Shown here in pieces: positions 370 through 28,523 of a stretch of 32,000 nucleotides of DNA (the stretch's first letter is position 1; every line of letters begins with the position of its first letter). The DNA is from Candidatus Methylomirabilis oxygeniifera (GTDB lineage: Bacteria > Methylomirabilota > Methylomirabilia > Methylomirabilales > Methylomirabilaceae), in NCBI GenBank assembly GCA_000091165.1, contig FP565575.1, positions 210,001 through 242,000 of the forward strand, given 5' to 3'. Below the pieces are notes generated by a model that saw only the letters and a program-made list of their open reading frames with translations, did no database searches and was not told the origin of the DNA. The position numbers and the translations under genes are program-made.

Positions 370-1017
370 TCATCGCTTGTGTGTGGCAGCCCCCTTTGCA
401 CGCTTTCGGCGGCTGGGCTTGACCTCCGCTGTTTGGGCGTGCTGCGGCCACCAGAAGGCTGTCGCCGCAAACCAGAGCAGGATCGGGAAGAGACCGAACC
501 CGTTGACGGAAAAGAAGGCGTAGCCCCACTCGTACAGCTTGACTGTAAACGAAGAAGCGGCCTCAGGCATCATGCCGTGCGCCTGCAGCCCTGGATAGAC
601 GGCGGTCCAGCGTAGCTTGATGTACAGGTCGGCAAGATGCAGCATCGACAGCCCCGCCCCACCGGCCAGGCAGATCTTGGCTTTCGTTGCCAGGCCAAGC
701 AGCGGCGTGGCAATGGTCAGGGAGACGAGCAGGATCATGTTGACGTAGGTGGCGTCGTCGAGCACATTGACGGTGGCCATGCCGGCAGACCCATCCGACT
801 TGGTCACTGGTCTGACGATCCAGACCCGCCGATCCCTAGCTTCGAGATGACTGTCCGGCGGAAGCATCCCCGTCGCATGCAGAATGGTCTGCCCGACCGT
901 AGCCATTCCCTGAGCGTACAAAGGGGAGAGGAAACGCCAGACGGCGAGCAGCAGCAACAGCGCAATGGTAAACCATGCGGTGAAACGGCCGATTCTAGCT
1001 CTGAGGGTGGCGAGCAA
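370..1017 (-). CDS. Polytopic membrane protein of unknown function, translationally coupled partner of the exosortase-like gene (start uncertain)
   Basis: Long ORF 370-1125. It overlaps the upstream gene's stop (995-997). In-frame TTG at 1017 precedes the first hydrophobic helix (FTAWFTIALLLLLAVW). At least 4 hydrophobic segments and a basic C-terminal tail. No family recognised. Confidence 0.55.
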   Translation of the reverse strand: MLATLRARIGRFTAWFTIALLLLLAVWRFLSPLYAQGMATVGQTILHATGMLPPDSHLEARDRRVWIVRPVTKSDGSAGMATVNVLDDATYVNMILLVSLTIATPLLGLATKAKICLAGGAGLSMLHLADLYIKLRWTAVYPGLQAHGMMPEAASSFTVKLYEWGYAFFSVNGFGLFPILLWFAATAFWWPQHAQTAEVKPSRRKRAKGAATHKR

Positions 1018-1513
1018 GGGCCCCTGCCCAGAATAGCCAGAGGCCCAGGGCGAAGACGATGAAGAGCGACTGCCAGACATAGATATGCGCGGTGTCAAAG
1101 TACGGGCGAAAGTGGCTTCCGACATAGATCAGGCTGAGCACCCGCATCAGGTTCAGAATATACAGCGCGCCGCTGCCCAGGAGCACGCCCCAGAGACGTT
1201 GTCGCCAGGTCGCCGGATAAGCGAGTATTGCCGACACGAACAGGGCCGTCTCGTAGATGGCGTTGCAATTGTTCTGAATCGCCACCGAGAAGAGGGGGGT
1301 TGTGACCACCTTGTCATGCACCGTGGCCTCCGTCCCGCCGAGCAGCAGAATGGTTCGCGCGAGTTGAGCGATTCCCCTGGTAAAAGGATCGACAAGCTGT
1401 CGGTCCAGACCGTACAGCAGGCCGAACAGGCCCAGGATATACAGGCCAAACAGCAGTGCGCTGCGTCGGATCTGGGCGCGAGGAGATGGTGATTCAACCT
1501 CTGAGGTTTGCAT
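995..1513 (-). CDS. Minimal exosortase/archaeosortase-family protein (about 172 aa)
   Basis: Polytopic. The order of conserved elements fits the exosortase core: ...LGGTEATVHDKVV...VAIQNNCNAIYETALFVSA (Cys motif) ... YILNLMRVLSLIYVG (Arg motif) ... H-IYVWQSLFIVF (His). The size resembles the short XrtF/XrtH-type exosortases. Confidence 0.55.
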   Translation of the reverse strand: MQTSEVESPSPRAQIRRSALLFGLYILGLFGLLYGLDRQLVDPFTRGIAQLARTILLLGGTEATVHDKVVTTPLFSVAIQNNCNAIYETALFVSAILAYPATWRQRLWGVLLGSGALYILNLMRVLSLIYVGSHFRPYFDTAHIYVWQSLFIVFALGLWLFWAGALARHPQS

Positions 1514-1745: not shown

Positions 1746-1771
1746 CCTCAGTAGTGACGGTGGAGGTTGGT

Positions 1772-2941
1772 ATGGGGTGTTGTATCCATTTGACCAGGCG
1801 GCAGTTTCTGAGCGCGGCAATGACGCTGGCCGCTATAGCGCCGTCGTGGCTGCCGAGGCCGGCCGAGGCCGCCCCTACCCCTGTTCCCGTTCCAAAGACG
1901 TTGGGTCGAACAGATGCCCTGCTGAAGGAGATCATTACGACCTATGCGTCCGTAGAAGACGACCCATGGGTCCTGATGCACGGAGTGAGGGCCTTAGGAT
2001 CGTCCTTTTCGGTAAAGGGAGAACGGGCGGTTGATTTTCTCTGCGCCCGGTTCCTGACGCCTCAGGCGGTGAATGGAAAGAGCTATCCTCAGATGTCCCT
2101 CGACAATCAGGGCCATACCAATACGTTCCTCAAGACCCTCATCGAGGCCGGCATAGGACTTGATCATCGCTTTGCATTGGAAGGCAGGCGCTACACCGTC
2201 GGCGACATCGCCGAGGGGGCGAAGGCCCTCTTTGCATTTGATCCGAAGACCGCCAATCCGGACGACCTGGCCTGGACGTTGATCGCCCTCTCCCGGATCA
2301 TCCCTCCGGATAAGGACACCTGGACGAATGCGGCCGGGCAGCGGATCCGCTTCTCTGACGTGGTCCGTTTTGCCTTCGATACCCTTGATGAGACGACGGC
2401 GCAGTTCAGGCAGGCGAAGGCGAAAGGGGTCATGCCGGATGCCAACGACAAGGTCGTCAATTTTACCTGCGGTGGGACCCACTTGGTCTACGGCCTGACG
2501 ACATGTGTCGGCAATGGGTATCGTGACCACGGGTTTCCGCAACGTCTCAAGACGCACCTGGATCTGATGGCCTGGCGTCTCGAGGCCGATGACCGCCTGA
2601 TCGATCGGTTCTATCGCAATGCTGCTCCCCCCCCGGGGAATCCGAGCGGATGGCAGGCGGTTCACGCTCTGCACCACAATGACGCCAAGATCAAGTTCTA
2701 CGGCCACACATTCGAGATACTCAGTTATGCCGTGCAGCACAAACTGTTTAAGCCGACCTCCACTCAGTCACAGGCGATCGAGCGGGCCGGGACAAGACTA
2801 GCGGGGGCGGCGACGGGTATAAAAGGAGTGGACCTGTTCGAGGTGCGCAAGGCCAGTCGCCGCCTGTTCCACCTGCTGATCGGGGACTCCTGCCATGCCT
2901 ATCACGGTATCCGGATGACGCCCGGCCTCAACCAGGCCTAG
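1772..2941 (+). CDS. Tat-exported protein of unknown function
   Basis: GGAGG at 1762-1766, 5 nt before ATG 1772. N-terminus MGCCIHLTRRQFLSAAMTLAAIAPSW carries a twin-arginine motif (T-R-R-x-F-L) followed by an AEA cleavage-type site. I recognise no domain in the rest. Confidence 0.7.
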   Translation: MGCCIHLTRRQFLSAAMTLAAIAPSWLPRPAEAAPTPVPVPKTLGRTDALLKEIITTYASVEDDPWVLMHGVRALGSSFSVKGERAVDFLCARFLTPQAVNGKSYPQMSLDNQGHTNTFLKTLIEAGIGLDHRFALEGRRYTVGDIAEGAKALFAFDPKTANPDDLAWTLIALSRIIPPDKDTWTNAAGQRIRFSDVVRFAFDTLDETTAQFRQAKAKGVMPDANDKVVNFTCGGTHLVYGLTTCVGNGYRDHGFPQRLKTHLDLMAWRLEADDRLIDRFYRNAAPPPGNPSGWQAVHALHHNDAKIKFYGHTFEILSYAVQHKLFKPTSTQSQAIERAGTRLAGAATGIKGVDLFEVRKASRRLFHLLIGDSCHAYHGIRMTPGLNQA

Positions 2942-2957
2942 GGCGGTGATGATAGAG

Positions 2958-3185
2958 GATACCCCTCTTTGGAAAAGAGGGGCGAGGGGAGATGTTCTCA
3001 ATCGATGTCGATTCATGATTGGAGATCACTGCTGTTTACAATATTCACACTACATCCTTACGGGAACAAGGGAAGTAATGGATTGTATTGATCACTGTAA
3101 AATCCCCCTCCATCCCCCTTTCTCAAAGGGGGAAAATATGGCGAATACCCCTCTTTGGAAAAGAGGGGCGAGGGGAGATTTTCTT
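2958..3185. repeat. Cluster of three G/C hairpin repeats (two of subfamily B, one of subfamily A)
   Basis: Subfamily B: acccctctttggaaaagaggggcgaggggagatNttc at 2961-2997 and 3147-3184, nearly identical, with a third copy at 8054-8094. Subfamily A: atccccctccatccccctttctcaaagggggaaaat at 3101-3137. Confidence 0.85.
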
Positions 3186-3223
3186 AGGGAACTGCCCTTT
3201 TGAGGGATCGAGAAGAGGAGAGC

Positions 3224-3796
3224 ATGGGATTCAAGAACAGTAGCAGGCAACGGATCGTGCGGATGGCAGGATGGCTGCTCGCTGTGGCGGCCGTCGGCGT
3301 CGGATGTGCCGGGCCGTTTACGGCCAGGACGATCGACCGGGAGGCACGGCTGAAAGAGCGGGCCGCCGTATACTGGGAGGCCAGGGTGGCGGGCGATCTG
3401 GTCGAAACCTATCGATTGCACGAGCCGAACTTTCGGAAGAAGGTGACGCTGACCGCCTTTTCGCAGGGCCGTGGGGTGTCCACGGTCTTCGATTACGAGA
3501 TCGCCGCCGTCCGGATCGAGGGGGACAAGGGGTTTGTAACCACCAAGGTCAACTATACCGTGACGCACCCGATGCTGGCCAAGCCGGTCGAGCCGCGCTG
3601 GCGGGATATTGAAGAGCAATGGCGGTGGGTGGATGGCGAGTGGTATCGCCGCTTCCGCTTTCCGATGGGCGATCCCTATCCCGACCAGGCTTGGTGGGAC
3701 CCGCGCGAGACCGGTAAGGTGACCGGCGACGACGCGGCCGTCGGACCGCCGCCTGCTGCAACCCAGGGCCAGACCCCGGCGGAACCGGCGCGGTGA
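3224..3796 (+). CDS. Secreted protein or probable lipoprotein, unknown function
   Basis: GAGGAG lies upstream of ATG 3224. Basic n-region, hydrophobic core WLLAVAAVGVGC with Cys (non-canonical lipobox VGC). Pro/Ala-rich C-terminal tail. Confidence 0.6.
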   Translation: MGFKNSSRQRIVRMAGWLLAVAAVGVGCAGPFTARTIDREARLKERAAVYWEARVAGDLVETYRLHEPNFRKKVTLTAFSQGRGVSTVFDYEIAAVRIEGDKGFVTTKVNYTVTHPMLAKPVEPRWRDIEEQWRWVDGEWYRRFRFPMGDPYPDQAWWDPRETGKVTGDDAAVGPPPAATQGQTPAEPAR

Positions 3797-3838
3797 CGCG
3801 GGCTGAGACTGCCTGCCGTGGCGCGCGCGATTTTTTGC

Positions 3839-3867
3839 TTGACATCATGAGACGGTAGGAGTATAAA
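3839..3867 (+). promoter_or_regulatory. Near-consensus sigma70 promoter of secreted paralog A
   Basis: TTGACA (3839-3844), 17-nt spacer, TATAAA (3862-3867). It lies in the gap after the preceding gene's stop at 3796. Confidence 0.55.
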
Positions 3868-4083
3868 CACCCGGAGTGGTTTTTCTGTGTCCGGCGTGGG
3901 ATCGCGAGGGTGGGGCTGACAGGATCTCATGCGGCAGTCTTCCGGTTGACACGACGAATCGACACGACAAACGGGGGAACAGGCGAAAGGAGGTGGACTC
4001 CGAACAAAGATCCGAGGTCACAGAACGCTTCAGTTTGTTCAACCGTTGTATCGTTCCACACACTTATGTTAGGAGGACAGCAG

Positions 4084-5466
4084 ATGAAGCAATCTAGAAT
4101 TCGTGGAATCCTCGCAGGGGCTGCCGCGGTCGCGTTGATCGGCGGTACGGTTGCCCCCGCCCTGGCGAACACCGAACTGGTGCCTGCCAGCCGCCTGGTT
4201 GCCCCGTTTCTCGACATCAGCTCCGGTCGTGACACCTTTTATATGCTGGTGAACGTCAGCCAGAACGTGAACCTCAATAAGGTCGCCTATCCCATCTCCG
4301 GTACCGTAGATCTCGGTCCGTGGGGCGTCCACCTCGAGCACTATGGTCAGAGCTGCGACAGGGTTGACGAGAGCACGGGCCTGACCCCCGGCGACATCGA
4401 TCAGTTCGACCTCCTGGTGAACTCCGTAGCCCGCACGACGACCGGTTCCGGACAGGCACTCGGAGCGGTGACCCCCAGCGCCACCCAGAGCGGCGTGGCC
4501 GGTCGCGGCTGGACCGATATCGATATCCGGTACGGGTCCGGGACCCTCACCGGCAGCACCAGCATCCAGGCGAACGTCCTGCTTGGAACGGCGATCATCT
4601 CCGATTTCGGGTCTGACTTCGCCTTCGCCTATCCGATGGCGTCGATGATTGGTACATCTACCAGTGGCGGTAACCCCGGCTTCATCGGCGGCAAGATTGT
4701 GCAGCGGAATGCAACGGGCACCGCAACGGCCTGGTTCGGCCGCTATGAGCCGCTGCCCCACCGAGTTTTCGTGCCGATCTACTTCGCTGACGGAACCGAG
4801 AGCGGCAGCGGCGAGACCTTCAACTCATTCCTGGTTGTGGCCGGACCGCCGGATGGCAACTGGGATCGTTCTGATGACGGTGAAGCTCCAGGACAGTCAA
4901 CCGGTAAGGGCCTTGCCGGCCCACCGAACCTGACGCTGAACCTGATCGTCTGGGACGGCTGCGAGCAGAACACCTCATTCAACTACAGCTCACACTTCCT
5001 GAACAACACCTATGCTGCCCTGTTTGGGACGACCACCAACAGGAGCACCTGGAAGACGGCCGTGCCGACCAGTTGTCCGGCCGCTTTCGCCAGCCGCGAC
5101 GAGCTGTCCGGTCAGGCGCTGGGCTGGATCGATATCATCAACTCGGCCAAGGCCTGTGACAATACGGCTAACGGCACGGCTGGTTGTCCCGTCGGCACCG
5201 GCACCGGCGCCGGCACGGGTACCGGCCAGGCGCGCGGTATGGCCGGCATCAACGTCAGCAACGTGGTCAGCTCTTCAGTGAACCTGGGTGACGTGACGCG
5301 GCTGTGGGGTGATGCGTCACCGTGGGGCGTCTCCCCGGCTTCAGGCGATACTGCCACCTGCTACAATGGTGTCGCCTGCCGCTACTCGCTGGTCGACCTG
5401 GTCAGACACGTCGATATCGACCAGACCGGTACGCTTACCAGCTCTAACTCCATCAGCGAGCAATAG
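4084..5466 (+). CDS. Secreted protein, unrecognised family, paralog A (460 aa); candidate major surface protein
   Basis: AGGAGG at 4071-4076, 7 nt before ATG 4084. Sec signal peptide MKQSRIRGILAGAAAVALIGGTVAPALA/NTE. Mature part is rich in G/T/S/N and contains a GTGTGAGTGTG tract. Colinear similarity to 9043-9963. The track ORF 3910-5466 has an in-frame extension with no signal peptide or SD. Confidence 0.8.
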   Translation: MKQSRIRGILAGAAAVALIGGTVAPALANTELVPASRLVAPFLDISSGRDTFYMLVNVSQNVNLNKVAYPISGTVDLGPWGVHLEHYGQSCDRVDESTGLTPGDIDQFDLLVNSVARTTTGSGQALGAVTPSATQSGVAGRGWTDIDIRYGSGTLTGSTSIQANVLLGTAIISDFGSDFAFAYPMASMIGTSTSGGNPGFIGGKIVQRNATGTATAWFGRYEPLPHRVFVPIYFADGTESGSGETFNSFLVVAGPPDGNWDRSDDGEAPGQSTGKGLAGPPNLTLNLIVWDGCEQNTSFNYSSHFLNNTYAALFGTTTNRSTWKTAVPTSCPAAFASRDELSGQALGWIDIINSAKACDNTANGTAGCPVGTGTGAGTGTGQARGMAGINVSNVVSSSVNLGDVTRLWGDASPWGVSPASGDTATCYNGVACRYSLVDLVRHVDIDQTGTLTSSNSISEQ

Positions 5467-5491
5467 TCCTCGCTGTCCTGCTGCTTGAAAA

Positions 5492-5526
5492 GGGGGTCCA
5501 GCTTTCGCTGGACCCCCTTGCTTTTT
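5492..5526 (+). terminator. Rho-independent terminator of paralog A
   Basis: gggggtccagc (5492-5502), tttc loop, gctggaccccc (5507-5517), then ttgcttttt. The 11-bp stem is perfect and GC-rich. It begins 26 nt after the stop. Confidence 0.85.
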
Positions 5527-6115: not shown

Positions 6116-6496
6116 TTACGATGACAGGAATCGCCGCACGGCTTCCAGAATGCGCTGAGCATCCGCGACGTCCCGCCTCGCGTCCTCTTCTGTGATGCTG
6201 AGCATGGCCTCATAGTCCCCAGCTTGCCGATTTTCGTAGAGCCTGGTAAGTAGGATGGTGAACTCGCGTGGGAACAGCCCTTGGTGGACGAACGCTTTAT
6301 TGAATCGGCCCAGTACTTGGGCGTGGCTAGAATAGGTCTCGTCTTGTGATAATAGGGCCGCGCTGATCGCGTGGAACGCCGCGTAATAGGCTCTGGATGA
6401 GGCATCTCCCCATGCGCGGCCATGCAGGAGTAATGTGGCTGCCCGTAGTTTCTCTTCGGCGTGGGCAAGCAGGATGGCCGGAGTGTTGGTGGTCAC
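6116..6496 (-). CDS. HEPN domain protein (toxin partner of the MNT nucleotidyltransferase)
   Basis: GTG at 6496 overlaps the MNT stop (GTGA). LLAHAEEKLRAATLL...AYYAAFHAISAALL...RLYENRQAGDYE is typical of HEPN (PF05168-type). The track's N-terminal extension to 6556 is unlikely. Confidence 0.75.
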   Translation of the reverse strand: MTTNTPAILLAHAEEKLRAATLLLHGRAWGDASSRAYYAAFHAISAALLSQDETYSSHAQVLGRFNKAFVHQGLFPREFTILLTRLYENRQAGDYEAMLSITEEDARRDVADAQRILEAVRRFLSS

Positions 6497-6819
6497 AAGG
6501 GCACTCCTTCGAGGGCGATATTGCGTGCCAGTGGCAAGCCTTGGGCGACGCGCCACTCAGCGTCGGTGCGAAGAATGCTGGCGACCAACGCGCCGTAGCG
6601 GTCCATCAGGTCGGCTTCAATCTCAAGGATGATCGAGCGAACATCCGGACTGCGTTGATCCACGATGACCAGTACGTCGTAGTCGGAGTCCTCGCGGGCC
6701 TCACCTCTGGCTCGTGAGCCGAACAGTACGATGTGCCGGATGTGGTTCCCGAGTCGCGCGCGTAATGTCGACGCAAACGTGTGAAGGACAGGGTCAACGT
6801 CCGTATGGGGAGGTGACAT
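6493..6819 (-). CDS. Minimal nucleotidyltransferase (MNT) domain protein, antitoxin partner
   Basis: IVLFGSRARGEAREDSDYDVLVIV is the GS-x10-D-x-D nucleotidyltransferase motif. 108 aa. 4-nt overlap with the HEPN gene. Confidence 0.8.
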   Translation of the reverse strand: MSPPHTDVDPVLHTFASTLRARLGNHIRHIVLFGSRARGEAREDSDYDVLVIVDQRSPDVRSIILEIEADLMDRYGALVASILRTDAEWRVAQGLPLARNIALEGVPL

Positions 6820-7262: not shown

Positions 7263-7862
7263 TCACTCAGCCGGTGGTTTGAGCCCTTCCAGCCAGATTG
7301 CCGAATCGTTCAGTATGACGACGGTTGTCTTGGTTGCCATCACTGTTATCGGAGAGGCCCAGAGCAGTGTGGAGACCTTTCCGGGCAGCTCGGCAAGGAG
7401 GATCCAGCGGCCATCCGGGACATCCTGGAATGTAAATCCGGCGTCGACATGATTGGTGGTGGCTGATCGAACAAGACTGGGGCCGTGCTGATCCCCCCCC
7501 GCGGCAGCCTGAAGGCGATTCAGGAAGCTGCGTGCTGCGTCAAATCGCTCAGGCGAGAGGGGTTCGCGGCCTCCGTCGAGATACGGGGAGCGGGCCTGAT
7601 TCAGCGCAGATTCCTGCGTGGGGGAAAGCGGCAGGAGGGTCACCGTCCAGCCCGTCAATGGTGTGGGGATTGCAGGCTGGGCGAGGTAGAGGCGACCAAC
7701 AACTGTCCCTGTGTTGCCGGAGACCTGGCGTTCTGCTATGGTGGCAAGATAGGCGGCGTTCGCAGCGGGCCCGGGAGCATGACCGATACCGGCGCAGCCC
7801 GTGAGTGCGACAAGAGACAGCGTTCCCCATATACGTGCCCGATCAAACCTCCTACTGCCCAT
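7263..7862 (-). CDS. Lipoprotein, unknown function
   Basis: Canonical lipobox LSLVALTGC. GGGAGGGG lies 5 nt upstream of ATG 7862. The motif DAGFTFQDVPDGRWILL suggests a carboxypeptidase-regulatory-like beta-sandwich (weak). Confidence 0.7.
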   Translation of the reverse strand: MGSRRFDRARIWGTLSLVALTGCAGIGHAPGPAANAAYLATIAERQVSGNTGTVVGRLYLAQPAIPTPLTGWTVTLLPLSPTQESALNQARSPYLDGGREPLSPERFDAARSFLNRLQAAAGGDQHGPSLVRSATTNHVDAGFTFQDVPDGRWILLAELPGKVSTLLWASPITVMATKTTVVILNDSAIWLEGLKPPAE

Positions 7863-8020: not shown

Positions 8021-8094
8021 TAAAATCCCCCTTTTTCAAAGGGGGAAACGGTTAGTCCCCCTCTTTGGAAAAGAGGGGTTAGGGGAGATTTTCC
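8021..8094. repeat. Two adjacent G/C hairpin repeats (subfamily A at 8027-8045, subfamily B at 8057-8078)
   Basis: ccccctttttcaaaggggg and cccctctttggaaaagagggg, followed by ttaggggagattttcc. The subfamily B copy matches 2961-2997 and 3147-3184. Confidence 0.85.
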
Positions 8095-8129: not shown

Positions 8130-8158
8130 TTGACTTCCCTCTTACGCTTTCGTAGTAT
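8130..8158 (+). promoter_or_regulatory. Possible promoter of the Skp-like / paralog B / methyltransferase operon
   Basis: TTGACT (8130-8135), 17-nt spacer, TAGTAT (8153-8158). Confidence 0.3.
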
Positions 8159-8192
8159 GTTGAGGTCAGTCGTCAGCGCCGGGTACGGGGAC

Positions 8193-8236
8193 ATACCCCC
8201 TTTAATCCCCCTTTGCCAAAGGGGGAGGGGGGGGGA
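8193..8236. repeat. G/C hairpin repeat (subfamily A) followed by a G9 tract
   Basis: ccccctttgccaaaggggg at 8207-8225. Homopolymer G9 at 8227-8235. Confidence 0.8.
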
Positions 8237-8366
8237 GATGGGGAATGACCACATACACCGGATAGACGAAATGTCGAACGGCTTGGGCGAGGGGGTTGGA
8301 ATGTATCTGATCGGTTGCGGTACAACGCGAAAGCGGGGAGCAGGATCCCCGAGTATCCGGGGGAGG

Positions 8367-8936
8367 ATGGCTGCCGTTTTGCTGTTCAGCCTGCTTGTCG
8401 GCCTGCCGGCGATATTGGCGTTCGGGGAGGGGAAGTCCGGGATTGTGGACAGTGCGGAACTGATCAAGTTCTATGAACAACTGATGGCCAGTCCGGCCTT
8501 TGATCCGAAGACGCCGTTAGGGCCGGGGCGGGAGGAACGGGGGCGGGCGGAGGAAGAGCTTGATGCCGCCAAGCGCGCCTATGCCAAAGCCAGGGTGAAA
8601 GGCAATCCGGAGGCCCTGGCCGCCGCTCGAGACGTACTGCGCCAGAAGACAGACGCCTTACAGGTTCTGTACGGCAAGACCACTCAGGACCTCAGAGATG
8701 TTGCGAAGTACCGTTCGCCTGATATTCTGGTCGAATCGCTGCGCAGCCGTATTCAGGAGTATGGCCAGGCGCAAGGGTTTGACATCATTACGAATCAACA
8801 GACCGGCAAACCGATGTTCCTCCGAGAGGGCTTTTCCGGCGCCCCGGACAATCCGGTTGACGTCACGGGGGAAATGATCGAATGGATCAGACAGCAGGAG
8901 GCGGCGAGTCAATCCGGCCGTACAACCAGTCCCTGA
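8367..8936 (+). CDS. OmpH/Skp-like periplasmic chaperone (start 8367, or 8301)
   Basis: Signal peptide MAAVLLFSLLVGLPAILAFG. KSGIVDSAELIKFY resembles the Skp N-terminal K-I-G-V-V-D motif. Long helical, charged middle section. C-terminal GFDIITNQ...VDVTGEMIEWI resembles the Skp tail. Confidence 0.5.
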   Translation: MAAVLLFSLLVGLPAILAFGEGKSGIVDSAELIKFYEQLMASPAFDPKTPLGPGREERGRAEEELDAAKRAYAKARVKGNPEALAAARDVLRQKTDALQVLYGKTTQDLRDVAKYRSPDILVESLRSRIQEYGQAQGFDIITNQQTGKPMFLREGFSGAPDNPVDVTGEMIEWIRQQEAASQSGRTTSP

Positions 8937-9042: not shown

Positions 9043-9963
9043 ATGGGCAGGCGCAGACGGGCGGCATGGGCCGCGCCTCTTCTCATGATCGTGTGGGTGT
9101 TGTCCGTCTGCCTTCATCAGCCTGCCCAGGCTCTGGCCGCGACGAACAGCGAGCTGATCCCTGGATCGAGGATTGTCTTCCCATACTACGATCTCCGCGA
9201 AGGCATCTCGACTTTTCTGAGCTTGACGAATGTCGGTCTCGGTTCGGCGACCCTTCACCTGGAATTCTACGATGCGAGCTGTCTGCGGCGAGACAGCAGC
9301 CTGGACCTCTCGGCAGGCGATGCCGACCTGCTGGATATCGGTGCCATCCTGCAGCCTCAGGCAGACGGGCTGTTCCGGCAAGGGTTTGTGGACGTGGTGA
9401 CCTTTGCGGGGGATGCCCTGCTCGGAACGGCGATCATCGTGAATGGGCCGGAGGATTGGGGGATCGTCTATCATGGCGCCTCAGCCAGGCGGTTGTCGGG
9501 TGGTCCTCTCCCATTTGAGCCCTACCCATCACGACTGTTTCTGCCGGCCTTCCTTACTCAGGGGAGCGTGGGTGACGGGAGGCTGAGCGATGGGCTGCTG
9601 GTAGTGGCCGCGCCTCACCCGACCCAGCCAGGCGGTGAACTGCCCGATCTGTCATTACAGTCGACAATCCGAGTCTTTCTCGATCAGGAACCGGCGTTTC
9701 AGTTGACGACGATTGGTGAGAAAGCGGAGGAGGGGCTGCCGACGGCGACCTCGACCGGCCATCAGCTTCTTCTTCCCATCGGTCAGGCCGCGGGGACATT
9801 TCCTACGCCGAGGTTCGGCTGGCTCTCGGTGACCAATCAGGCTGTCGATGAGGTCGGCACACCGATCGGCATGGTGGGTCTGTACATCCAGACGATTGCC
9901 GGAGATGGGTCCGGCATGGGCATGGCGATCCGCCTCTGGGCCGATCCGGCATCCGGGCCGTAG
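9043..9963 (+). CDS. Secreted protein, unrecognised family, paralog B (306 aa)
   Basis: Signal peptide MGRRRRAAWAAPLLMIVWVLSVCLHQPAQALA/ATN. Blocks colinear with paralog A: SELIPGSRIVFPYYD / TELVPASRLVAPFLD; LHLEFYDASC / VHLEHYGQSC; LLGTAII in both; PSRLFLPAF / PHRVFVPIY; LLVVAAP / FLVVAGP; GWLSVTN / GWIDIIN; RLWAD / RLWGD. Confidence 0.75.
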   Translation: MGRRRRAAWAAPLLMIVWVLSVCLHQPAQALAATNSELIPGSRIVFPYYDLREGISTFLSLTNVGLGSATLHLEFYDASCLRRDSSLDLSAGDADLLDIGAILQPQADGLFRQGFVDVVTFAGDALLGTAIIVNGPEDWGIVYHGASARRLSGGPLPFEPYPSRLFLPAFLTQGSVGDGRLSDGLLVVAAPHPTQPGGELPDLSLQSTIRVFLDQEPAFQLTTIGEKAEEGLPTATSTGHQLLLPIGQAAGTFPTPRFGWLSVTNQAVDEVGTPIGMVGLYIQTIAGDGSGMGMAIRLWADPASGP

Positions 9964-9986: not shown

Positions 9987-11150
9987 ATGGGCAGCCTGAC
10001 CGTCGTGATTCGTCAGGGAGCGGATGGCCGCTTCGCGCAGGTCTGTCGGGACAGCCTGGTCAACTGTACCCCGGAGCTGGAACAGATCATCGAGATGCCG
10101 GACGACACCCGCCCTGGTGGTGTCTGGACCCGGATCAGCACCCCGTTTGTGGCATTTATTGACGAGACCGTTGCGGTGTGTCCGGGGTGGGCCGGACGTA
10201 TGATAGCGAGCCTGATCCGATCGGGGGCGGCGGCGATCGGCCCCCTGACCAATGGCGCCGACGGGGCGCAACACCAGGCAGGCGACTATCAGGACATCTC
10301 CGGGTTTTTGGACTTCGCCGACCGGATCGCTCAAGACCGGGCCGGCCGGACCCAGTCGGTTGAGGCTCTGGATCCCTGTTGTGTTCTCTATTCCCGCGAC
10401 AGGCTTACCGGGATCGGGTTAGATGCTGCGCCCAATGACCTGCCGGCATTTGTGCATGATGCCGGCCTCTGCCTGGCGGTTGCCTTGGACACCTACGTTC
10501 ACTCCTTCGCCTCCTACTATGCCCAGGCCCGTCCGGAGGTGGTTGCCATGATTCCGGCGACTGCGTCCCGCATTCTGGATGTCGGCTGCGGAACAGGGAC
10601 GCTTGGAGGCCGACTGAAGACGGAGCGCCGGATTGAGGTTATCGGTGTCGAGATGGATCCGACAGCGGCGGAGGCGGCCGGCCGTGTGCTGGATCGAGTG
10701 CATCGTGCCGACGTAGAGACGCTGGTATTGCCGTATCCTGCAGGGAGCTTCGACGCGATCATCATGGCGGACATCCTGGAGCACCTGCGTGATCCATGGG
10801 GCCTGCTTGCGAGACTTTCGCCGCTTCTGTCATCCGAGGGCCGCCTGATTGCCAGTCTGCCCAATGTCCGGCACTGGTCGGTGGTGCGGGGGCTCCTGGA
10901 GGGCGAGTGGACCTATCTGCCTGCCGGTATTCTGGATCGCACACATCTACGCTTCTTCACCAGGAGGAGCGGCCAGGCCCTTATCGAGTCGGCCGGGTTA
11001 TGTGTGATCGGGACTGAACCGATCCGGTCGGCCGGGCCGCCGGATCTTGCGGCATTGGTCGAGGCCTGCCGGGGCCTTTTACTCGACGTCTCCACCCTCG
11101 TCGATGAGGCGAGCGTCGCACAGTATCTCTACCTGGCGGCGCCAAGATAG
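9987..11150 (+). CDS. Fusion of a degenerate GT2-like N-terminal domain and a class I SAM-dependent methyltransferase
   Basis: The N-terminus has GT2-like topology (LTVVIRQG...FVAFIDETV) without a clean DxD motif. The C-terminal half has ILDVGCGTGTLG (motif I), DAIIMADILEHLRDP and THLRFFT, typical of Methyltransf_11/23-type enzymes. Confidence 0.7.
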   Translation: MGSLTVVIRQGADGRFAQVCRDSLVNCTPELEQIIEMPDDTRPGGVWTRISTPFVAFIDETVAVCPGWAGRMIASLIRSGAAAIGPLTNGADGAQHQAGDYQDISGFLDFADRIAQDRAGRTQSVEALDPCCVLYSRDRLTGIGLDAAPNDLPAFVHDAGLCLAVALDTYVHSFASYYAQARPEVVAMIPATASRILDVGCGTGTLGGRLKTERRIEVIGVEMDPTAAEAAGRVLDRVHRADVETLVLPYPAGSFDAIIMADILEHLRDPWGLLARLSPLLSSEGRLIASLPNVRHWSVVRGLLEGEWTYLPAGILDRTHLRFFTRRSGQALIESAGLCVIGTEPIRSAGPPDLAALVEACRGLLLDVSTLVDEASVAQYLYLAAPR

Positions 11151-11634: not shown

Positions 11635-12801
11635 ATGCAAACCTCAAGAGTGATCGACGTCGATCCGGTTGATCTGTCCGTCCTGATCGTCAACTATAAT
11701 GTGGGCCGATTCGTCCTGGATGCGATAGGTTCGGTCGCGGCACAGCGGTTTGTTGGGCCTGAAGGGCGTCCCGGTCGTCTTGAGATGCTGGTCATCGATA
11801 ATGCGTCACATCCCGCCGATGCAGCCATACTGGATCGCCTGCCCGCCTCCGTCACCGTCATAAAGAACTCAACGAATCTTGGATTCGCGGCTGCCAACAA
11901 TCAGGGGATTGTACGGGCGCAGGGCCGATACCTCTGTTTCTTGAATCCCGATACGAGGCTTCGAGAGGGATCGCTCCAGGCGATGCTTCAGTATCTGTAT
12001 GAGCACCCCGGGGTTGGAATGGTAGGGCCCATGATCTGGGCCGACGATGAGGGGGTGCTGCGTCTGCCGCCCGGTGATCCGCCCTCTCTGTTGTTTCTGT
12101 TGAGCCGGGCTATGGGCGGGGTCTCTCCGAGGTTCAGTCTGTGGCGGCAAAGGCGGTGGCTCCGATCTGCTGTTCGGTTCTGGCGGGCTGAGGCTCCGAT
12201 GGACACTACCATGCTCTCCGGCGCCTGCCTGATGGCATCGCGGCATGTTATCGAGCATGTCGGCCGGTTCGATTCCGGCTTCTTCCTGTACTATGAGGAC
12301 TCCGATCTGTGTCGTCGCATTCGTGGGCAAGGTTATCGCCTGGTGGTCGTGCCTGCCGCTCAGGTCGTCCATTATTATAATCAGAGCGCAAAGACGGACC
12401 CGGCAGGAGCCTGGTGTCACGCCATGGCCTCCGAGCTTCGCTTTGTCAGGATCCATTACGGTCGCACCGGTGCCCTGATATACCGGATCGCTCAAGACAT
12501 AGGTAGGCGTTCAGGACGGGGTCGACAGCCGGTGAACAGGCCGGACGTGATAGATCTCGGCGCGCTGGAGCGGCCACCCCGATTGAGCGTCCCAGGCGCT
12601 GTCGTGCCCGAGAGGGAGCTGCTATGGCAGGTTGGTCCGGATTCCGGATTTGCGCCCTCGGCCGGAGCCCTGCGTGTCGGGAACGGATTCGACTTTAACC
12701 GGATTGTGTGGGAACGTCTGATGCCCGGACGTTATTTCGCCAGGGCCGTCGATCCAAAGACCCTTCGGCCGATGGCATACTGGTCGTGGGTAAAGCGGTA
12801 G
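11635..12801 (+). CDS. Family 2 glycosyltransferase (rhamnosyltransferase-like)
   Basis: LSVLIVNYN...LVIDNAS...NLGFAAANNQG...FLNPDT...GACLMASRHV...FFLYYEDSDLCRR is the classic GT2 (WbbL-like) motif order. Confidence 0.85.
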   Translation: MQTSRVIDVDPVDLSVLIVNYNVGRFVLDAIGSVAAQRFVGPEGRPGRLEMLVIDNASHPADAAILDRLPASVTVIKNSTNLGFAAANNQGIVRAQGRYLCFLNPDTRLREGSLQAMLQYLYEHPGVGMVGPMIWADDEGVLRLPPGDPPSLLFLLSRAMGGVSPRFSLWRQRRWLRSAVRFWRAEAPMDTTMLSGACLMASRHVIEHVGRFDSGFFLYYEDSDLCRRIRGQGYRLVVVPAAQVVHYYNQSAKTDPAGAWCHAMASELRFVRIHYGRTGALIYRIAQDIGRRSGRGRQPVNRPDVIDLGALERPPRLSVPGAVVPERELLWQVGPDSGFAPSAGALRVGNGFDFNRIVWERLMPGRYFARAVDPKTLRPMAYWSWVKR

Positions 12802-14326
12802 ACCGACAGACGGCTGCGATCTGATCCCACGTCAGCGGAGCAATGCGCTGCTCCCTATGGCGCCATTCGAGAATGACGGTCTTGTCGCTGTCCTGGAGCG
12901 CACCGGCGTGGAGGAGGGGACACGGGTCCCCAGGGTGATGCAGGAGACGGACCTCCTGTGGAATGCGCGTAAACGGGGCTGCCGCAGCGATCGGCAGCGC
13001 CCAACTCCCCTGCCCGAAGAGCTGTGCGCCGAAGTGGAGGTCAGGATTACCGATCATGAGGACGGCGCGCACGTCGGATCTGTTCGCGGCTTGTTCGATC
13101 ACCGCAAGGATTGTCCGGTTGATCCGACCTGCCTGGATCCATGGGAGGCTGTTGACGGATAACAGCATAACGGATGACAGCACGACGGCCGATGTCCATA
13201 TACGACGGATGCGTGTTCGACTCTGATTGAGAAGGACACCGAGAAGGAGGCAGAACCCTGCCGATGATAGATAATGGAGTCTGGCAAAATCATCCGGCGC
13301 GCCCCTTGCCGACAGGAGGCTGAGTACCGGGAGCGCCAGGATGATCATCAGGCCGAGGCAATAGAGCGCCTGTCGACGCATGCTCCCCGTGACGGCAACG
13401 ACCGCGACCACAGCGGCCGAGAGCCACTGGAAGATGCCGATAGCTCGCCTTGCCATGATACCGATCACCGGATCACCCGCAGACGTGAGCAGCGATCCCC
13501 CCGGCAACAGTTGATAGAGAAACAGATGAACGAGCCCGAGCGGCATCAGGGAGGGGTCGGAGGGGTTGGTGTCCATGGGGCCATACTGACCGATGAGATG
13601 CCCGGTGAGTACCTTGCGAAGGATGAAGTAGGCCCCCAGCACGATATAATACGGCAGCAGCGACATGGCCGTGGGAGGGGCGGATCGGTCACGGTTCGGA
13701 TACCGAACCATCACCCAATGAAAGGTCAGGACAATAGGAACGATGACGGCAGTTTCCTTTGAAGCAAGAGCAAGGACGAAGGCAAGCAACGATCCCGGAT
13801 AGAGCAACGGCTGTTTGAGGCCGGAAAAGGCAAGATACAGCAGGATCGCCAGGAGCGCAAAGAAGGCCATGATCAGTTCTGTACGGCCGACGAGCCAGTA
13901 GACGGCTTCAGGGTGCAGGGGGTGGAGCGCAAACAAGAGGCCTGCCGTCAATCCGATAGCCGGTGAGGCAATGGGCCGCAGGGCAGCGATACCGTACACA
14001 AGGAGACCGTTGAAGGCGTTCAAAAGCATGTTGGTCAGGTGCGGACCCACCGGGTTGACTCCCCAAAGGCTTATATCGATCCCGCCGGAGAGCGTTACCA
14101 TCGGACGGTAATAGCTGTAGCTCAGGTCGCCGCGATAGACCGTGTAGAAGTCGGACAGTACGTTCTGCCAGTCGACTGAATTCCTGTCGCCGCTGAGGAT
14201 GGTGACGACGTTGAAGTCGTCGGATAGGAAGTAGCCGTACAGGGATGGGGCGTACACGAGAAGACTCACCGCAAGTATCAGCGACAGATCGCAGGCGATT
14301 CTGGAAGGCAGTGGGGATGGATGCAT
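12695..14326 (-). CDS. GT-C superfamily polytopic membrane glycosyltransferase (PMT/TMTC/ArnT-like)
   Basis: AAGGAGG lies 6 nt before ATG 14326. Many hydrophobic helices. The first extracytoplasmic loop carries YFLSDDFNVV, the acidic DD/DE motif characteristic of GT-C enzymes. Soluble C-terminal domain of about 150 aa. Confidence 0.55.
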   Translation of the reverse strand: MHPSPLPSRIACDLSLILAVSLLVYAPSLYGYFLSDDFNVVTILSGDRNSVDWQNVLSDFYTVYRGDLSYSYYRPMVTLSGGIDISLWGVNPVGPHLTNMLLNAFNGLLVYGIAALRPIASPAIGLTAGLLFALHPLHPEAVYWLVGRTELIMAFFALLAILLYLAFSGLKQPLLYPGSLLAFVLALASKETAVIVPIVLTFHWVMVRYPNRDRSAPPTAMSLLPYYIVLGAYFILRKVLTGHLIGQYGPMDTNPSDPSLMPLGLVHLFLYQLLPGGSLLTSAGDPVIGIMARRAIGIFQWLSAAVVAVVAVTGSMRRQALYCLGLMIILALPVLSLLSARGAPDDFARLHYLSSAGFCLLLGVLLNQSRTRIRRIWTSAVVLSSVMLLSVNSLPWIQAGRINRTILAVIEQAANRSDVRAVLMIGNPDLHFGAQLFGQGSWALPIAAAAPFTRIPQEVRLLHHPGDPCPLLHAGALQDSDKTVILEWRHREQRIAPLTWDQIAAVCRSTALPTTSMPSAEGSLDRRPWRNNVRASDVPTQSG

Positions 14327-14437
14327 GTCGGGCCTCCTTGTGCCCCACAGTGAAGGCGATACCATCATAACCGCCATATCAGTATCACGACCCAGGAGAT
14401 GTTGCAATCGTTCTTCAGTCGGTATAGATGCCTTACC

Positions 14438-14467
14438 TTGACGGTTCAAGTCCAAAGCCATTATACT
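14438..14467 (+). promoter_or_regulatory. Sigma70-like promoter of wzm-wzt and downstream genes
   Basis: TTGACG (14438-14443), 18-nt spacer, TATACT (14462-14467). GAGAGGAG lies upstream of ATG 14503. Confidence 0.45.
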
Positions 14468-14502
14468 GATTTACCGCATAGTTGCTATAAGAGAGGAGTA
14501 GG

Positions 14503-15294
14503 ATGAAGGCGATACGAGCGATCTATCGATACAGAGAGGTGACATTCAGCTTTGTGAAGCGGGATCTGGCGGCTCGCTACAAGGGTTCGACCTTCGGAAT
14601 GCTCTGGTCGATCGTCAATCCTCTCATTATGCTGATCCTTTATACCTTTGTCTTCTCCACGATCCTGAAGGTTCGGGTGGGTGTTCAGGAGGGTACCGGC
14701 AGTTTTGCCGTCTACCTGTTCTGCGGTCTGCTGCCATGGAACGCCTTTGCCGAGCCCCTTGGACGGTCCACGGGGATCGTGTTTGAGCATACCAATCTTA
14801 TCAAGCGAATGGTATTTCCGGTCGAGATCCTTCCTTTATATATTGTCATTTCAAGTATAATCAATCAACTGATAGGTCTGGCCATCCTTTTCCTCGTCCT
14901 GCTTGCGAACGGACATCGGTTCAGTATGCTGATTGCATTCCTGCCGGCGCTTCTCCTTCTCCAGATTACTTTTACCGTTGGATTAGCCTGGATTATAGCC
15001 GGAGCCACTGTCTTTTTGCGCGATATTGCTCAGGTGATCGGAATGATCACGACCCTGTGGCTTTTCCTGACCCCGATATTTTACACGGCTAATCTTGTTC
15101 CTGAGGGATGGCGGCCTTTTCTAGGGTTGAACCCGATGTATGCCGTTGTTGAGTCGTACAGGTCTATTATCCTGAAAGGGCAGTTGCCTGATCCGAGCAG
15201 CCTGATTTACCTTTTTCTCACGGCTGTCATTACCTTTGTTGTCGGCCATCGGATTTTTACTAGGATGCAACCCGCGTTCGCTGATGTGATCTGA
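14503..15294 (+). CDS. wzm: ABC-2 type polysaccharide export permease
   Basis: YRYREVTFSFVKRDLAARYKGSTFGMLWSIVNPL is the typical Wzm/TagG/KpsM N-terminus. Six hydrophobic segments. 263 aa. Confidence 0.85.
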   Translation: MKAIRAIYRYREVTFSFVKRDLAARYKGSTFGMLWSIVNPLIMLILYTFVFSTILKVRVGVQEGTGSFAVYLFCGLLPWNAFAEPLGRSTGIVFEHTNLIKRMVFPVEILPLYIVISSIINQLIGLAILFLVLLANGHRFSMLIAFLPALLLLQITFTVGLAWIIAGATVFLRDIAQVIGMITTLWLFLTPIFYTANLVPEGWRPFLGLNPMYAVVESYRSIILKGQLPDPSSLIYLFLTAVITFVVGHRIFTRMQPAFADVI

Positions 15295-16562
15295 TGTACG
15301 CGATTGAGGTCCATGACCTTTCTAAGGTCTATCGGCTCTACTCGAATCCGAAGGACCGCCTCAAGGAGTATCTCTTCCGGGGCAGGCGGACCTACCACCA
15401 GGCGTTCTGGGCCTTAAGAAATGTGAGTTTCAGGGTTGCACATGGCTCGACGTTAGGCCTTGTCGGCGACAACGGGGCCGGTAAGAGCACGCTGCTTCAA
15501 CTGGTGGCCGGCACTCTGCGGCCCACATCCGGCAGCGTGACGTTGAATGGCCGCGTCTCCACAATCCTGGAACTGGGTGCGGGGTTCAATCCGGAGTTTA
15601 CAGGTCGAGAGAATGTCTTTATGACAGGATCAATCATGGGGATACCACAGCAGGAAATGGAGCGGCGATTCCCGGAGATTGCCGCGTTTGCAGAAATTGG
15701 GGATTTTATTGAACGGCCTGTAAAGCTGTATTCCAGCGGCATGTACGTCCGCCTTGCGTTTGCTGTTGCGACCAGCGTGGACCCCGACATACTGATAGTC
15801 GATGAGGCCCTCTCTGTCGGGGATCAGTACTTTCAGAAGCGCTGCATAGATCGGATCGAAGGTTTCAGGAAGTCCGGTAAGAGCATACTGTTTTGCTCTC
15901 ACAATCTGTACCAGATCAGATTGATCTGCGACGAGGCCGTCTGGCTGAAGGATGGTGAGGTCGCCATGGCCGGAGAGGCCTCCAGGGTTATTGGAGCGTA
16001 TCAGAACTATATGCGGGAGAGGGAGATGCCAAAGGCTTCTCCCGCCACGGTTGAGGTCGGACCAAGGACCTTTCCCTGGGTCTCAGGTGTACGGCTGAGC
16101 TGTGGTGACGAGGAGGGGGATCGGGATGAGTTCGTAACAGGAGACGAACTGGTCGTGACGGTCGCGTACGAGGTGCCTGATCCGCCAAGGGTTGTTCATG
16201 TGGGTGTCGTCATTGTCAGGAACGATTCGGTGCAGGTATTCGGCACCGGCACCCACGTCTCAGGCGTCAAACTCCCACCCCGTTCGAGCAGTTCAAGGAT
16301 ACGTTTTCCGGCACTTCCGCTTCTATCCGGTCAATACGCGATTTCAGTGTTCCTTCTTGATGAGCACGGAATTCACGTCTACGATGAAAAGGAGCGCGAG
16401 TTCAAGTTCCAGGTGACTCAGAATGTGCAGGCCCTGGGTCTGAGCTTCCTGGAACACCGTTGGGACGTGGAGGTCCCGCATGAGGCGAACGGCAAGTGGG
16501 GCTCTGACGATCACGCCGGCAACAAGCAGATAAACAATGCGTTAGGCATCGTCAAAGGATAA
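15294..16562 (+). CDS. wzt: Polysaccharide ABC transporter ATP-binding protein with a C-terminal Wzt_C-like glycan-binding domain
   Basis: Walker A GDNGAGKST, signature YSSGMYVRLAFA, Walker B ILIVDEALSVGD. A C-terminal extension of about 170 aa shows a beta-sandwich pattern (FVTGDELVVTVAY...LLSGQYAISVFL). Its start overlaps the wzm stop by 1 nt (TGATG). Confidence 0.85.
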   Translation: MYAIEVHDLSKVYRLYSNPKDRLKEYLFRGRRTYHQAFWALRNVSFRVAHGSTLGLVGDNGAGKSTLLQLVAGTLRPTSGSVTLNGRVSTILELGAGFNPEFTGRENVFMTGSIMGIPQQEMERRFPEIAAFAEIGDFIERPVKLYSSGMYVRLAFAVATSVDPDILIVDEALSVGDQYFQKRCIDRIEGFRKSGKSILFCSHNLYQIRLICDEAVWLKDGEVAMAGEASRVIGAYQNYMREREMPKASPATVEVGPRTFPWVSGVRLSCGDEEGDRDEFVTGDELVVTVAYEVPDPPRVVHVGVVIVRNDSVQVFGTGTHVSGVKLPPRSSSSRIRFPALPLLSGQYAISVFLLDEHGIHVYDEKEREFKFQVTQNVQALGLSFLEHRWDVEVPHEANGKWGSDDHAGNKQINNALGIVKG

Positions 16563-28274: not shown

Positions 28275-28523
28275 ATGAGGACAACAATTGAGCTGACCGA
28301 CGACCAGCGGGCAAGACTTCTTGCGCTGGCAGCGAAACGACGGCTTCGTGGTTACTCGGTCTTGATTCACGAAGCCCTCGAACGGTACCTCGAAGAGACG
28401 CCGAACGGGGGGCGGGCGAGGGCAGCGGCCAGGGCTGCGCGGAAGGTGCGGGGCACGCTTTCGGAGAATGAGGCCGAACGGATGCGACAACGGATCGCGG
28501 AGCTGTGGAAGCGGTGGCGATAA
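28275..28523 (+). CDS. vapB: Ribbon-helix-helix type antitoxin
   Basis: MRTTIELTDDQRARLLALAAKRRLRGYSVLIHEALERYL is a CopG/RHH-like N-terminus. 82 aa. It overlaps the downstream PIN gene. Confidence 0.65.
   Translation: MRTTIELTDDQRARLLALAAKRRLRGYSVLIHEALERYLEETPNGGRARAAARAARKVRGTLSENEAERMRQRIAELWKRWR

Follow-up and report, generated by a model that had tools for sequence, protein, structure and literature searches.

A Sec-exported all-beta protein with a conserved expression unit as a candidate outer-envelope component of Methylomirabilis

INTRODUCTION

In a stretch of 32,000 nt from Candidatus Methylomirabilis oxyfera (contig FP565575.1, positions 210,001 to 242,000; hereafter the window, in whose own numbering all positions are given) the open reading frame (ORF) at 4084-5466 on the forward strand codes for a protein that is identical to CBE67334.1 (UniProt D5MII4) by exact-sequence match. 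The database annotation of CBE67334 is 'exported protein of unknown function', and literature searches on CBE67334, D5MII4, the DAMO locus tags and expression data yielded nothing about this gene. Relatives are present in genomes of Methylomirabilota (NC10). Methylomirabilis oxidises methane with nitrite and has a unique polygonal cell shape set by the outer envelope. The S-layer subunit is the only Methylomirabilis envelope protein identified so far. An earlier note on this DNA, made from the sequence alone, had proposed CBE67334 as the major S-layer protein. We favour, with a probability of roughly 45%, a different reading: CBE67334 would be an abundant structural component of the outer envelope that is tethered through a lipoprotein and is distinct from, but functionally associated with, the lattice protein carrying an IPTL-CTERM sorting domain. 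The protein has conserved partners, namely two lipoproteins (lipo198 and m199), a twin-arginine-exported protein (Tat395) and a paralogue, and offers a concrete candidate for a second major component of the envelope. The protein family, its fold, its set of partners and its leader resembling a STAB-SD element have not been described before.

RESULTS AND DISCUSSION

The gene and its expression signals

The gene is preceded by a TTGACA hexamer (3839-3844) and, after a spacer of 17 nt, by TATAAA, with a run of six T (3831-3836) before the -35 element. Together the hexamers agree with the consensus at 11 of 12 positions, the mismatch being an A at the sixth base of the -10 element. The near-consensus promoter of the earlier note is present in its elements, but the missing base is one that our consensus promoter scan treats as required: the scan of the window omitted this promoter because it demands a T at the last -10 position. 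Orthologues carry TATATA, TACAAA or TATACA as -10 hexamer, and the sixth position is always an A. In an alignment of the upstream regions of 8 orthologous loci, whose proteins are 33-80% identical, we found as invariant blocks TTTTTnCTTGACA, GTAnAnA exactly 16 nt further on, a mid-leader GGGG followed by AAAGGAGGTG a few bases later, and AGGAGG; outside these blocks the mean column identity is 55%. The sigma-70-type promoter motif TTTTTnCTTGACA-N16-GTAnAnA, which is invariant in the 8 regions and stands in a looser form upstream in 17 loci, occurs once in the 32 kb of the window, with 0.03 occurrences expected.

We searched for a hairpin before the T-tract upstream of the -35 element and found none; the tract was therefore rejected as the tail of an upstream terminator. 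Because no terminator separates the upstream genes from CBE67334, read-through from them is possible. The gene has its own promoter and terminator, and the monocistronic arrangement claimed for it is likely but not proven. The Shine-Dalgarno (SD) sequence AGGAGG, said to lie 7 nt before the ATG at 4084, was seen at 4071-4076. A longer in-frame ORF from a GTG at 3910 was rejected, as the conserved SD sequence, ATG and signal peptide all belong to the start at 4084. Downstream of the gene, a hairpin at 5490-5519 is followed by GCTTTTT and has a folding free energy of -28.1 kcal/mol (z = -5.2 against shuffled sequence); the GC-stem terminator of the earlier note is thus strong, although we measured a stem of 13 bp instead of 11 bp. 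Equally strong terminators also stand after 15 of the 15 checked full-length homologues that end normally (14 loci with the conserved gene module described below, and the locus L007): hairpins of 10-17 bp with -24 to -37 kcal/mol, followed by T-runs, whose sequences differ.

Codon usage is most strongly biased in CBE67334 among the 23 genes of the window, with an effective number of codons (Nc) of 40.2 compared to 41.4 to 56.5 for the others. Promoter, long leader, SD sequence and terminator are kept across orthologues down to 27-33% protein identity, and the expression signals are conserved across 15-25 orthologous loci. This conservation, together with the lowest Nc in the window, supports the view of CBE67334 as a highly expressed single-gene unit, which the earlier note had already suspected. 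Judged from its conserved signals, the gene is probably very highly expressed.

A conserved SD-like element in the leader

An untranslated leader of about 210 nt had been described before the gene. We likewise predict such a leader (3875-4083), and the long spacer is conserved in the orthologues, with 280-500 nt of intergenic sequence upstream of the genes throughout. Within the leader, GAAAGGAGGTG occupies 3985-3995 and precedes the real SD sequence by 83 nt; it is invariant in the upstream alignment, and this copy is the sole exact one within the window. The sequence AAGGAGGTG was found as an exact match in 21 distinct loci (e.g. at 9900 in L006 and at 1933 in L013), 78-121 nt upstream of the real SD sequence. 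Both GAAAGGAGGTG and AAGGAGGTG pair in full with the conserved 3′ end of the 16S rRNA by sequence complementarity.

A leader peptide encoded behind this element was considered and rejected: no start codon stands at a usable spacing after it, the peptides that are possible comprise 1-34 aa in most loci, the frame enters the coding sequence (CDS) in two, and none of the peptides is conserved. An Rfam search of the leader returned no family, only sub-threshold matches resembling small RNAs across the terminator hairpin; RNAalifold gave no consensus structure; and the single-sequence folding energy is ordinary (z = -0.73 against shuffles). The conserved function of the leader therefore resides in short sequence elements, and its sole conserved features are the G-run and the 11-nt anti-16S sequence.

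A precedent for such an element is the STAB-SD of the Bacillus thuringiensis gene cryIIIA, reportedly described by Agaisse and Lereclus in 1996 as a non-initiating SD-like sequence in the 5′ untranslated region (UTR) that stabilises the mRNA by binding of the 30S subunit. To our knowledge, the device has so far been described in Firmicutes. As in cryIIIA, an SD-like sequence (GAAAGGAGG...) lies in the 5′ UTR at a great distance before the start codon and initiates no upstream ORF; it is perfectly complementary to the 16S rRNA 3′ end without directing translation, and it belongs to a single gene, which in the case of cryIIIA is very highly expressed and in the case of CBE67334 would be so by its signals. 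The two differ in that the host is here a diderm NC10 bacterium and not a Firmicute, and in that the element is found about 110 nt from the predicted transcription start, whereas that of cryIIIA is at the mature 5′ end; processing of the leader could remove this difference. The element resembles a STAB-SD mRNA stabiliser, with a putative stabilising effect: a 30S subunit parked on the upstream SD-like element would protect the 5′ region of the mRNA, and this protection may result in a long-lived, heavily translated message. With the anti-16S element, STAB-SD-like stabilisation of an mRNA could be tested directly in a bacterium that is not a Firmicute.

The protein, its family and its predicted fold

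The protein starts with a typical Sec signal peptide, MKQSRIRGILAGAAAVALIGGTVAPALA followed by NTELVP, with cleavage predicted between ALA and NTE. Both the clean signal peptide (APALA before NTE) and the mature protein of 432 aa agree with the earlier note. The mature form has 44.8 kDa, a pI of 4.5 and seven cysteines, and glycine, threonine and serine make up 33%, in keeping with the Gly/Thr/Ser-rich composition claimed before. The GTGTGAGTGTG tract at 371-381 (GTGTG tract) sits in a variable, low-confidence loop. We could also confirm the count of nine N-x-S/T sequons, where 5.1 ± 2.0 are expected from the composition (P = 0.05). Of these, N57 alone is conserved, in 76 of 82 sequences, and just one sequon follows the bacterial pattern D/E-x-N-x-S/T (EQNTS). 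Among the genes scanned, none was reported to belong to an oligosaccharyltransferase family (STT3/PglB). Since the sequons are near chance level and unconserved, the hint of PglB-type N-glycosylation is weak.

Pfam and NCBIfam scans of the protein, its paralogue and all module partners returned no family even at E up to 5, and searches of PDB sequences found no match, either with the single sequence or with profiles. The secreted protein without an assignable domain that the earlier note had reported is thus confirmed by the signal peptide and the empty domain searches. A word-seeded search retrieved 88 full-length homologues, all of them unannotated, and an exhaustive profile search 74 matches at E ≤ 1e-3 among 1.84 billion cluster representatives. 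As far as these comparisons go, the family is very small and lineage-restricted, and CBE67334 founds an undescribed protein superfamily.

Its members are 391 to 504 aa long and consist of conserved blocks that alternate with variable loops. The most conserved stretch comprises the end of the signal peptide and the mature N-terminus (ALA followed by NTELVPASRLVAPF), whereas four hypervariable loops with many indels lie at 61-80, 121-140, 361-380 (with the GTGTG tract) and 441-460. The cysteines C91, C293 and C331 are invariant in the family; within its NC10 members this is also true for the polar residues H83, Y87, D104, D145, R149, E222, E267, D291, H304, D339, R384 and R406. In one orthologue (L011, 45% identity) an in-frame TAG at 10988-10990 lies two codons before the invariant Cys331, and the homology continues in frame behind it. 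An in-frame TAG is also found in L012 and L024, which makes three independent assemblies; a pseudogene, a strain polymorphism or read-through could account for it.

From an alignment of 82 sequences AlphaFold2 predicted a compact all-beta structure with a mean local confidence (pLDDT) of 87.1 and a predicted template modelling score (pTM) of 0.88. A Foldseek search of this model against the PDB and BFVD gave no match at E ≤ 1e-3. The earlier note had proposed profile and structure searches as a check, and these turned up no characterised enzyme or transporter family. The poor alignments that were obtained involve arrestin and Ig-like two-sandwich proteins. The protein lacks the marks of an outer-membrane beta-barrel porin, which are a closed barrel and an aromatic residue at the C-terminus: no porin was among the 50 best Foldseek matches, and the C-terminus reads ...SISEQ. 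A match confined to one domain was obtained with Thermotoga maritima TM1070 (PDB 1nc7), a beta sandwich of 116 residues from structural genomics without known function; the superposition has a TM-score of 0.76 normalised to TM1070 and a Foldseek probability of 1.00. However, TM1070 covers only about a quarter of the protein (TM-score 0.21 when normalised to the query) at a sequence identity of 5%. Together with Tat395, which also gave a confident model without a match among solved structures, CBE67334 would add new folds and families.

Relation to the S-layer protein of the genus

The S-layer of a sister species, M. lanthanidiphila, has been characterised biochemically: in sheets boiled in sodium dodecyl sulfate (SDS), mela_00855 was the only protein identified by liquid chromatography-tandem mass spectrometry, and immunogold labelling confirmed the assignment (PMC8671808). 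This protein has 316 aa, a signal peptide and a C-terminal IPTL-CTERM sorting domain, is highly transcribed according to the authors' data and is encoded near glycosyltransferase (GT) genes (PMC8671808). The sole BLASTp relative of mela_00855 (VUZ84482.1) is CBE67388 of M. oxyfera (PMC8671808), which implies that there is no match to CBE67334. mela_00855/CBE67388 and CBE67334 have in common that they are Sec-exported hypothetical proteins of the same genus encoded near GT genes. They differ in length (316 aa for mela_00855 compared to 460 aa), in the IPTL-CTERM domain and in the lack of any C-terminal signal in CBE67334, whose C-terminus (...VDIDQTGTLTSSNSISEQ) has no hydrophobic tail, and are set apart by the published BLASTp search. 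Since its accession number comes 54 after that of CBE67334, the CBE67388 gene should be located tens of kilobases (about 30 genes) past the right end of the window, probably in the same envelope region as the exosortase H (XrtH) gene described below.

Searching the window for an IPTL-type C-terminal motif yielded no matching ORF, and no ORF with a tail resembling a C-terminal sorting signal was found in the 50-odd fetched loci. A tail typical of exosortase cargo is absent from both CBE67334 and its paralogue; the cargo of XrtH is expected to be IPTL-CTERM proteins such as CBE67388 and not CBE67334. The Pfam and NCBIfam scans (E up to 5) also revealed no SLH, IPTL/PEP-CTERM, RTX/type I secretion or type IX secretion C-terminal anchoring module in the protein. 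The claim that CBE67334 is the main S-layer protein is therefore not supported: mela_00855 is the identified lattice protein in the sister species, and CBE67334 has no IPTL-CTERM domain. CBE67334 is not the S-layer protein already identified in the genus; an accessory or second-layer role is possible.

What had suggested an S-layer gene was the arrangement of the expression signals. Strong promoters, long leaders and strong terminators are found at the S-layer genes vapA of Aeromonas salmonicida, rsaA of Caulobacter crescentus and slpA of Thermus thermophilus. These genes also share with CBE67334 the single-gene unit, an acidic Thr/Ser/Gly-rich product and adjacent genes for O-antigen-type anchoring polysaccharides. 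The architecture for high expression is conserved in the orthologues, which upholds this part of the earlier argument, but the main S-layer protein of the genus is mela_00855/CBE67388. Moreover, no sequence or fold similarity of CBE67334 to these proteins was found, it contains seven cysteines, and its synteny suggests a dedicated lipoprotein partner in contrast to anchoring mediated by lipopolysaccharide (LPS) or SLH domains. S-layer proteins do not typically have so many cysteines or so strongly conserved a core.

Gene neighbourhood and partners

We compared all ORFs of about 50 fetched loci with the proteins of the window by BLASTP. In NC10 the genes are ordered Tat395, lipo198, CBE67334 and then m199 on the opposite strand, convergent with CBE67334. 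The module is usually followed by a Skp/OmpH-like gene, the paralogue, a methyltransferase, a GT2 gene, a PMT_2-type GT-C gene and Wzm/Wzt. It is conserved in about 25 loci, including M. limnetica, and Tat395 is syntenic with CBE67334 throughout NC10. Wherever a locus has an upstream flank, lipo198 stands directly 5′ of the CBE67334 orthologue. In a second NC10 clade the identity of CBE67334 is 33-41% vs 53-64% for Tat395 and lipo198, which fits a faster evolution of an exposed protein. Minority contexts of the family comprise one member after a TetR gene and before a GldG-like ABC system and another among five PMT_2 genes. The features of the window are listed in Table 1.

Table 1. Features of the CBE67334 locus (positions within the window)
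Feature	Position	Strand	Remarks
Exosortase H (XrtH)	995-1513	-	divergent from module
Tat395	1754-2941	+	partner gene; twin-arginine-exported helical protein
lipo198	3200-3796	+	partner gene; small lipoprotein, lipobox VGVGC, probable start ATG 3224
T-tract (UP-element-like) and -35 hexamer, TTTTTGCTTGACA	3832-3844	+	invariant across 8 aligned orthologous upstream regions
-10-like hexamer TATAAA	3862-3867	+	17 nt after -35
5′ untranslated leader, about 209 nt	3875-4083	+	from predicted start site
Leader element GGGGG-N7-GAAAGGAGGTG	3973-3995	+	11-mer at 3985-3995; STAB-SD-like
SD sequence AGGAGG	4071-4076	+	7 nt before ATG; invariant among orthologues
CBE67334 CDS, 460 aa	4084-5466	+	stop 5464-5466; signal peptide encoded at 4084-4167
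Intrinsic terminator	5490-5526	+	13-bp stem, 4-nt loop, GCTTTTT tail
m199	7263-7862	-	partner gene; second lipoprotein, lipobox LTGC
Skp/OmpH-like gene	8130-8936		probable start 8367; weak OmpH match
Paralogue of CBE67334, 306 aa	9043-9963	+	shorter

Tat395, a protein of 395 aa with the twin-arginine signal TRRQFL, has 115 homologues without Pfam domains. Its invariant residues are H76, H121, C239-G-G-T-H243, H318, E321 and H381, and C380 is nearly invariant. The AlphaFold2 model is helical (pLDDT 92.8), and Foldseek found no match for it in the PDB (best E 0.43). Judged from the residue pattern, Tat395 is probably a metal- or cofactor-binding protein.

The island around CBE67334 is located between XrtH and a glycan pathway with methyltransferase, GT2, GT-C and Wzm/Wzt genes. 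In the closer loci, exosortase H and a membrane protein are encoded divergently upstream of the module. The XrtH assignment is based on TIGR04177 (104.2 bits, cut-off 86), and Pfam Exosortase_EpsH also matches. CBE67334 adjoins a sortase gene that is expected to process the S-layer protein. In the window, a 251-aa multi-pass membrane protein of no known family is encoded at 370-1125 (-), overlapping the XrtH gene. The earlier note had pointed to a large glycan assembly locus nearby, and indeed we found Wzm/Wzt, GT2, GT4, RgpF, RmlD and PMT_2 genes. Among them is a 1460-aa fusion of GT4, RgpF (rhamnan synthesis) and HAD-hydrolase domains (18429-22811), in a pathway that is dependent on Wzm/Wzt and also contains RmlD, PIG-L deacetylase and GNAT genes. 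The PMT_2-type GT-C gene of the window lies at 12695-14461 (-). Such genes are unusually dense near family members (L009 3907-5715; five genes in L011; L051 3320-5338 and 7213-9063), and some of the enzymes have TPR/TMTC-like C-termini and an adjacent GT2. This density suggests periplasmic O-glycosylation of proteins or glycans.

Paralogue and distant homologues

The ORF at 9043-9963, which the earlier note had flagged for the same searches, likewise matched no Pfam or NCBIfam family. It is paralogous to CBE67334 (BLASTP 26% identity, E 1e-17) and has the same mature N-terminus (ATNSELIPGSR). The weakest profile matches of the family are secreted proteins of about 340 aa, whose source-named members come from metagenome-assembled genomes (MAGs) of Planctomycetes (alignment A5). 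The homology of this distant branch was confirmed by hhalign with a probability of 99.1% (E 1.3e-18, 289 columns). The proteins share with CBE67334 the motif P-x-S-x-L-x-x-P-x-x-D ... T-N at the mature N-terminus, are shorter and arranged in tandem, and are uncharacterised as well. Two relatives from this branch are fused to an extracellular HYR domain (PF02494). Invariant residues of the branch are G, P, W, C, F, Y, N, T, S and one Asp; since these are structural types, the pattern resembles that of a scaffold and not of an active site.

In two loci, L052 (10001-12213) and L053 (10001-13782; a Planctomycetes MAG), 2-3 tandem paralogues of the distant branch follow a lipo198-like gene, and each of the tandem genes is preceded by a separate ribosome-binding site, AAAGGAGGAT. 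Immediately before the family genes stands a lipo198 homologue in L052 (32% identity, E 1e-15) and a lipo198-sized gene in L053. Tat395, m199, XrtH and the glycan genes are absent from these two loci. As only the small lipoprotein and one or more secreted beta proteins persist in L052 and L053, these form the minimal conserved unit.

A candidate envelope component and its alternatives

On the favoured reading, CBE67334 would be an all-beta structural protein of the cell envelope of NC10 bacteria that is exported by Sec, contains disulfides and is held at the outer membrane by one or more lipoprotein partners. There it may form a non-lattice or accessory outer-envelope layer that works together with the IPTL-CTERM S-layer protein, and the PMT_2-type GT-C enzymes encoded nearby may O-glycosylate its Ser/Thr-rich loops. 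An unassigned dense layer has been seen beneath the S-layer (PMC8671808), and CBE67334 is a candidate for this density. A bolder version is rather doubtful: here the family and its dedicated small lipoprotein would constitute an unrecognised, lineage-restricted envelope layer with a new fold, shared with some Planctomycetes-like bacteria and produced from a message with STAB-SD-type stabilisation. Several points weigh against an envelope layer at all. A soluble protein with nothing but a Sec signal ends up in the periplasm, and the window encodes no means of crossing the outer membrane. The metalloprotein-like Tat395 could point to a periplasmic enzyme system, and the many polar residues kept invariant within the NC10 family would agree equally with a catalytic site or with one that binds a ligand or metal. 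The literature searched holds no expression or localisation data for the protein, and the SDS-boiled sheets of M. lanthanidiphila held only mela_00855 (PMC8671808).

Some of these points lead to an alternative that we regard as unlikely, namely a periplasmic role for CBE67334, either as a binding protein or as one subunit of a metalloenzyme system; it would work with Tat395 in a complex that the two lipoproteins tether to a membrane. The quartet of Tat395, lipo198, CBE67334 and m199 is conserved in NC10, the Tat export of Tat395 and its invariant His, Cys and Glu residues suggest a cofactor, many charged or polar residues of CBE67334 are invariant in the NC10 family, and the periplasm is by default where Sec delivers soluble proteins in a diderm. 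However, the distant branch retains the lipoprotein partner with no Tat395 in the two loci examined, its invariant residues are structural and not catalytic, and an exposed structural role is suggested by the hypervariable loops and the fusions to HYR domains. Neither CBE67334 nor Tat395 resembles a known enzyme in sequence or fold. Furthermore, with a conserved strong promoter, a leader and a terminator of its own, CBE67334 would be produced far in excess of Tat395. An exposed protein without fixed attachment is more doubtful still, and of the alternatives considered here we find it the hardest to believe: a released extracellular matrix protein or adhesin that aids flocculent or aggregated growth. 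It would agree with a signal peptide in a protein that itself has no membrane anchor, with the variable loops and with the HYR adhesion modules fused to distant relatives; glycan and exosortase neighbourhoods are, moreover, typical of exopolysaccharide and biofilm loci (PEP-CTERM/exosortase systems). Yet a lipoprotein partner that is conserved across phyla argues for tethering, no secretion system is encoded nearby, and the protein contains no repeats or adhesin-type domains.

We also consider it improbable that CBE67334 forms the lattice of M. oxyfera, be it as its main protein or as a second subunit, although the expression signals and the acidic, G/T/S-rich, exported product would suit such a role, as would the neighbourhood with its glycan locus of the O-antigen type and the exosortase that should process the S-layer protein. 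The reported lattice symmetries differ between M. oxyfera (oblique or square) and M. lanthanidiphila (hexagonal) (PMC8671808), which a second subunit could explain, and the authors leave room for additional lattice-associated proteins, conceding that SDS boiling may have removed some (PMC8671808). Against this stand the experimental identification of mela_00855 as the sole protein in the sheets of the sister species, its M. oxyfera orthologue CBE67388 as the only BLASTp match, and the missing IPTL-CTERM, SLH or other known anchoring module in CBE67334. The seven cysteines and the strongly conserved core also speak against a lattice subunit, as does the presence of the module in M. limnetica.

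Mobile genes and repeats around the module

A HEPN/MntA-like nucleotidyltransferase toxin-antitoxin pair is encoded at 6116-6556 (-) and 6493-6819 (-), between CBE67334 and m199. The pair is absent from this position in the other loci with a downstream flank (e.g. L006, L009 and L013); L001 carries an MNT-like ORF just 3′ of the CBE67334 orthologue. In M. limnetica (L051, NVQC01000022.1), an IS110-family transposase, GIY-YIG and DUF559 genes lie between the CBE67334 and m199 orthologues (14207-15565). Small mobile genes seem to collect downstream of the CBE67334 terminator. A PIN-domain toxin gene is found within the GT cluster (28505-28924), with a probable small antitoxin gene upstream.

An ORF of 85 aa at 2946-3203 was rejected as a gene, since the frame simply reads across two copies of a palindromic repeat. 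This repeat, CCCCTCTTTGGAAAAGAGGGG followed by CGAGGGGAGA, has three intergenic copies in the window (2962-2992, 3148-3178 and 8060-8088). Similar palindromic elements stand in orthologous intergenic gaps (L015 and L051), and the repeats look like a family of repetitive extragenic palindromic (REP)-like elements.

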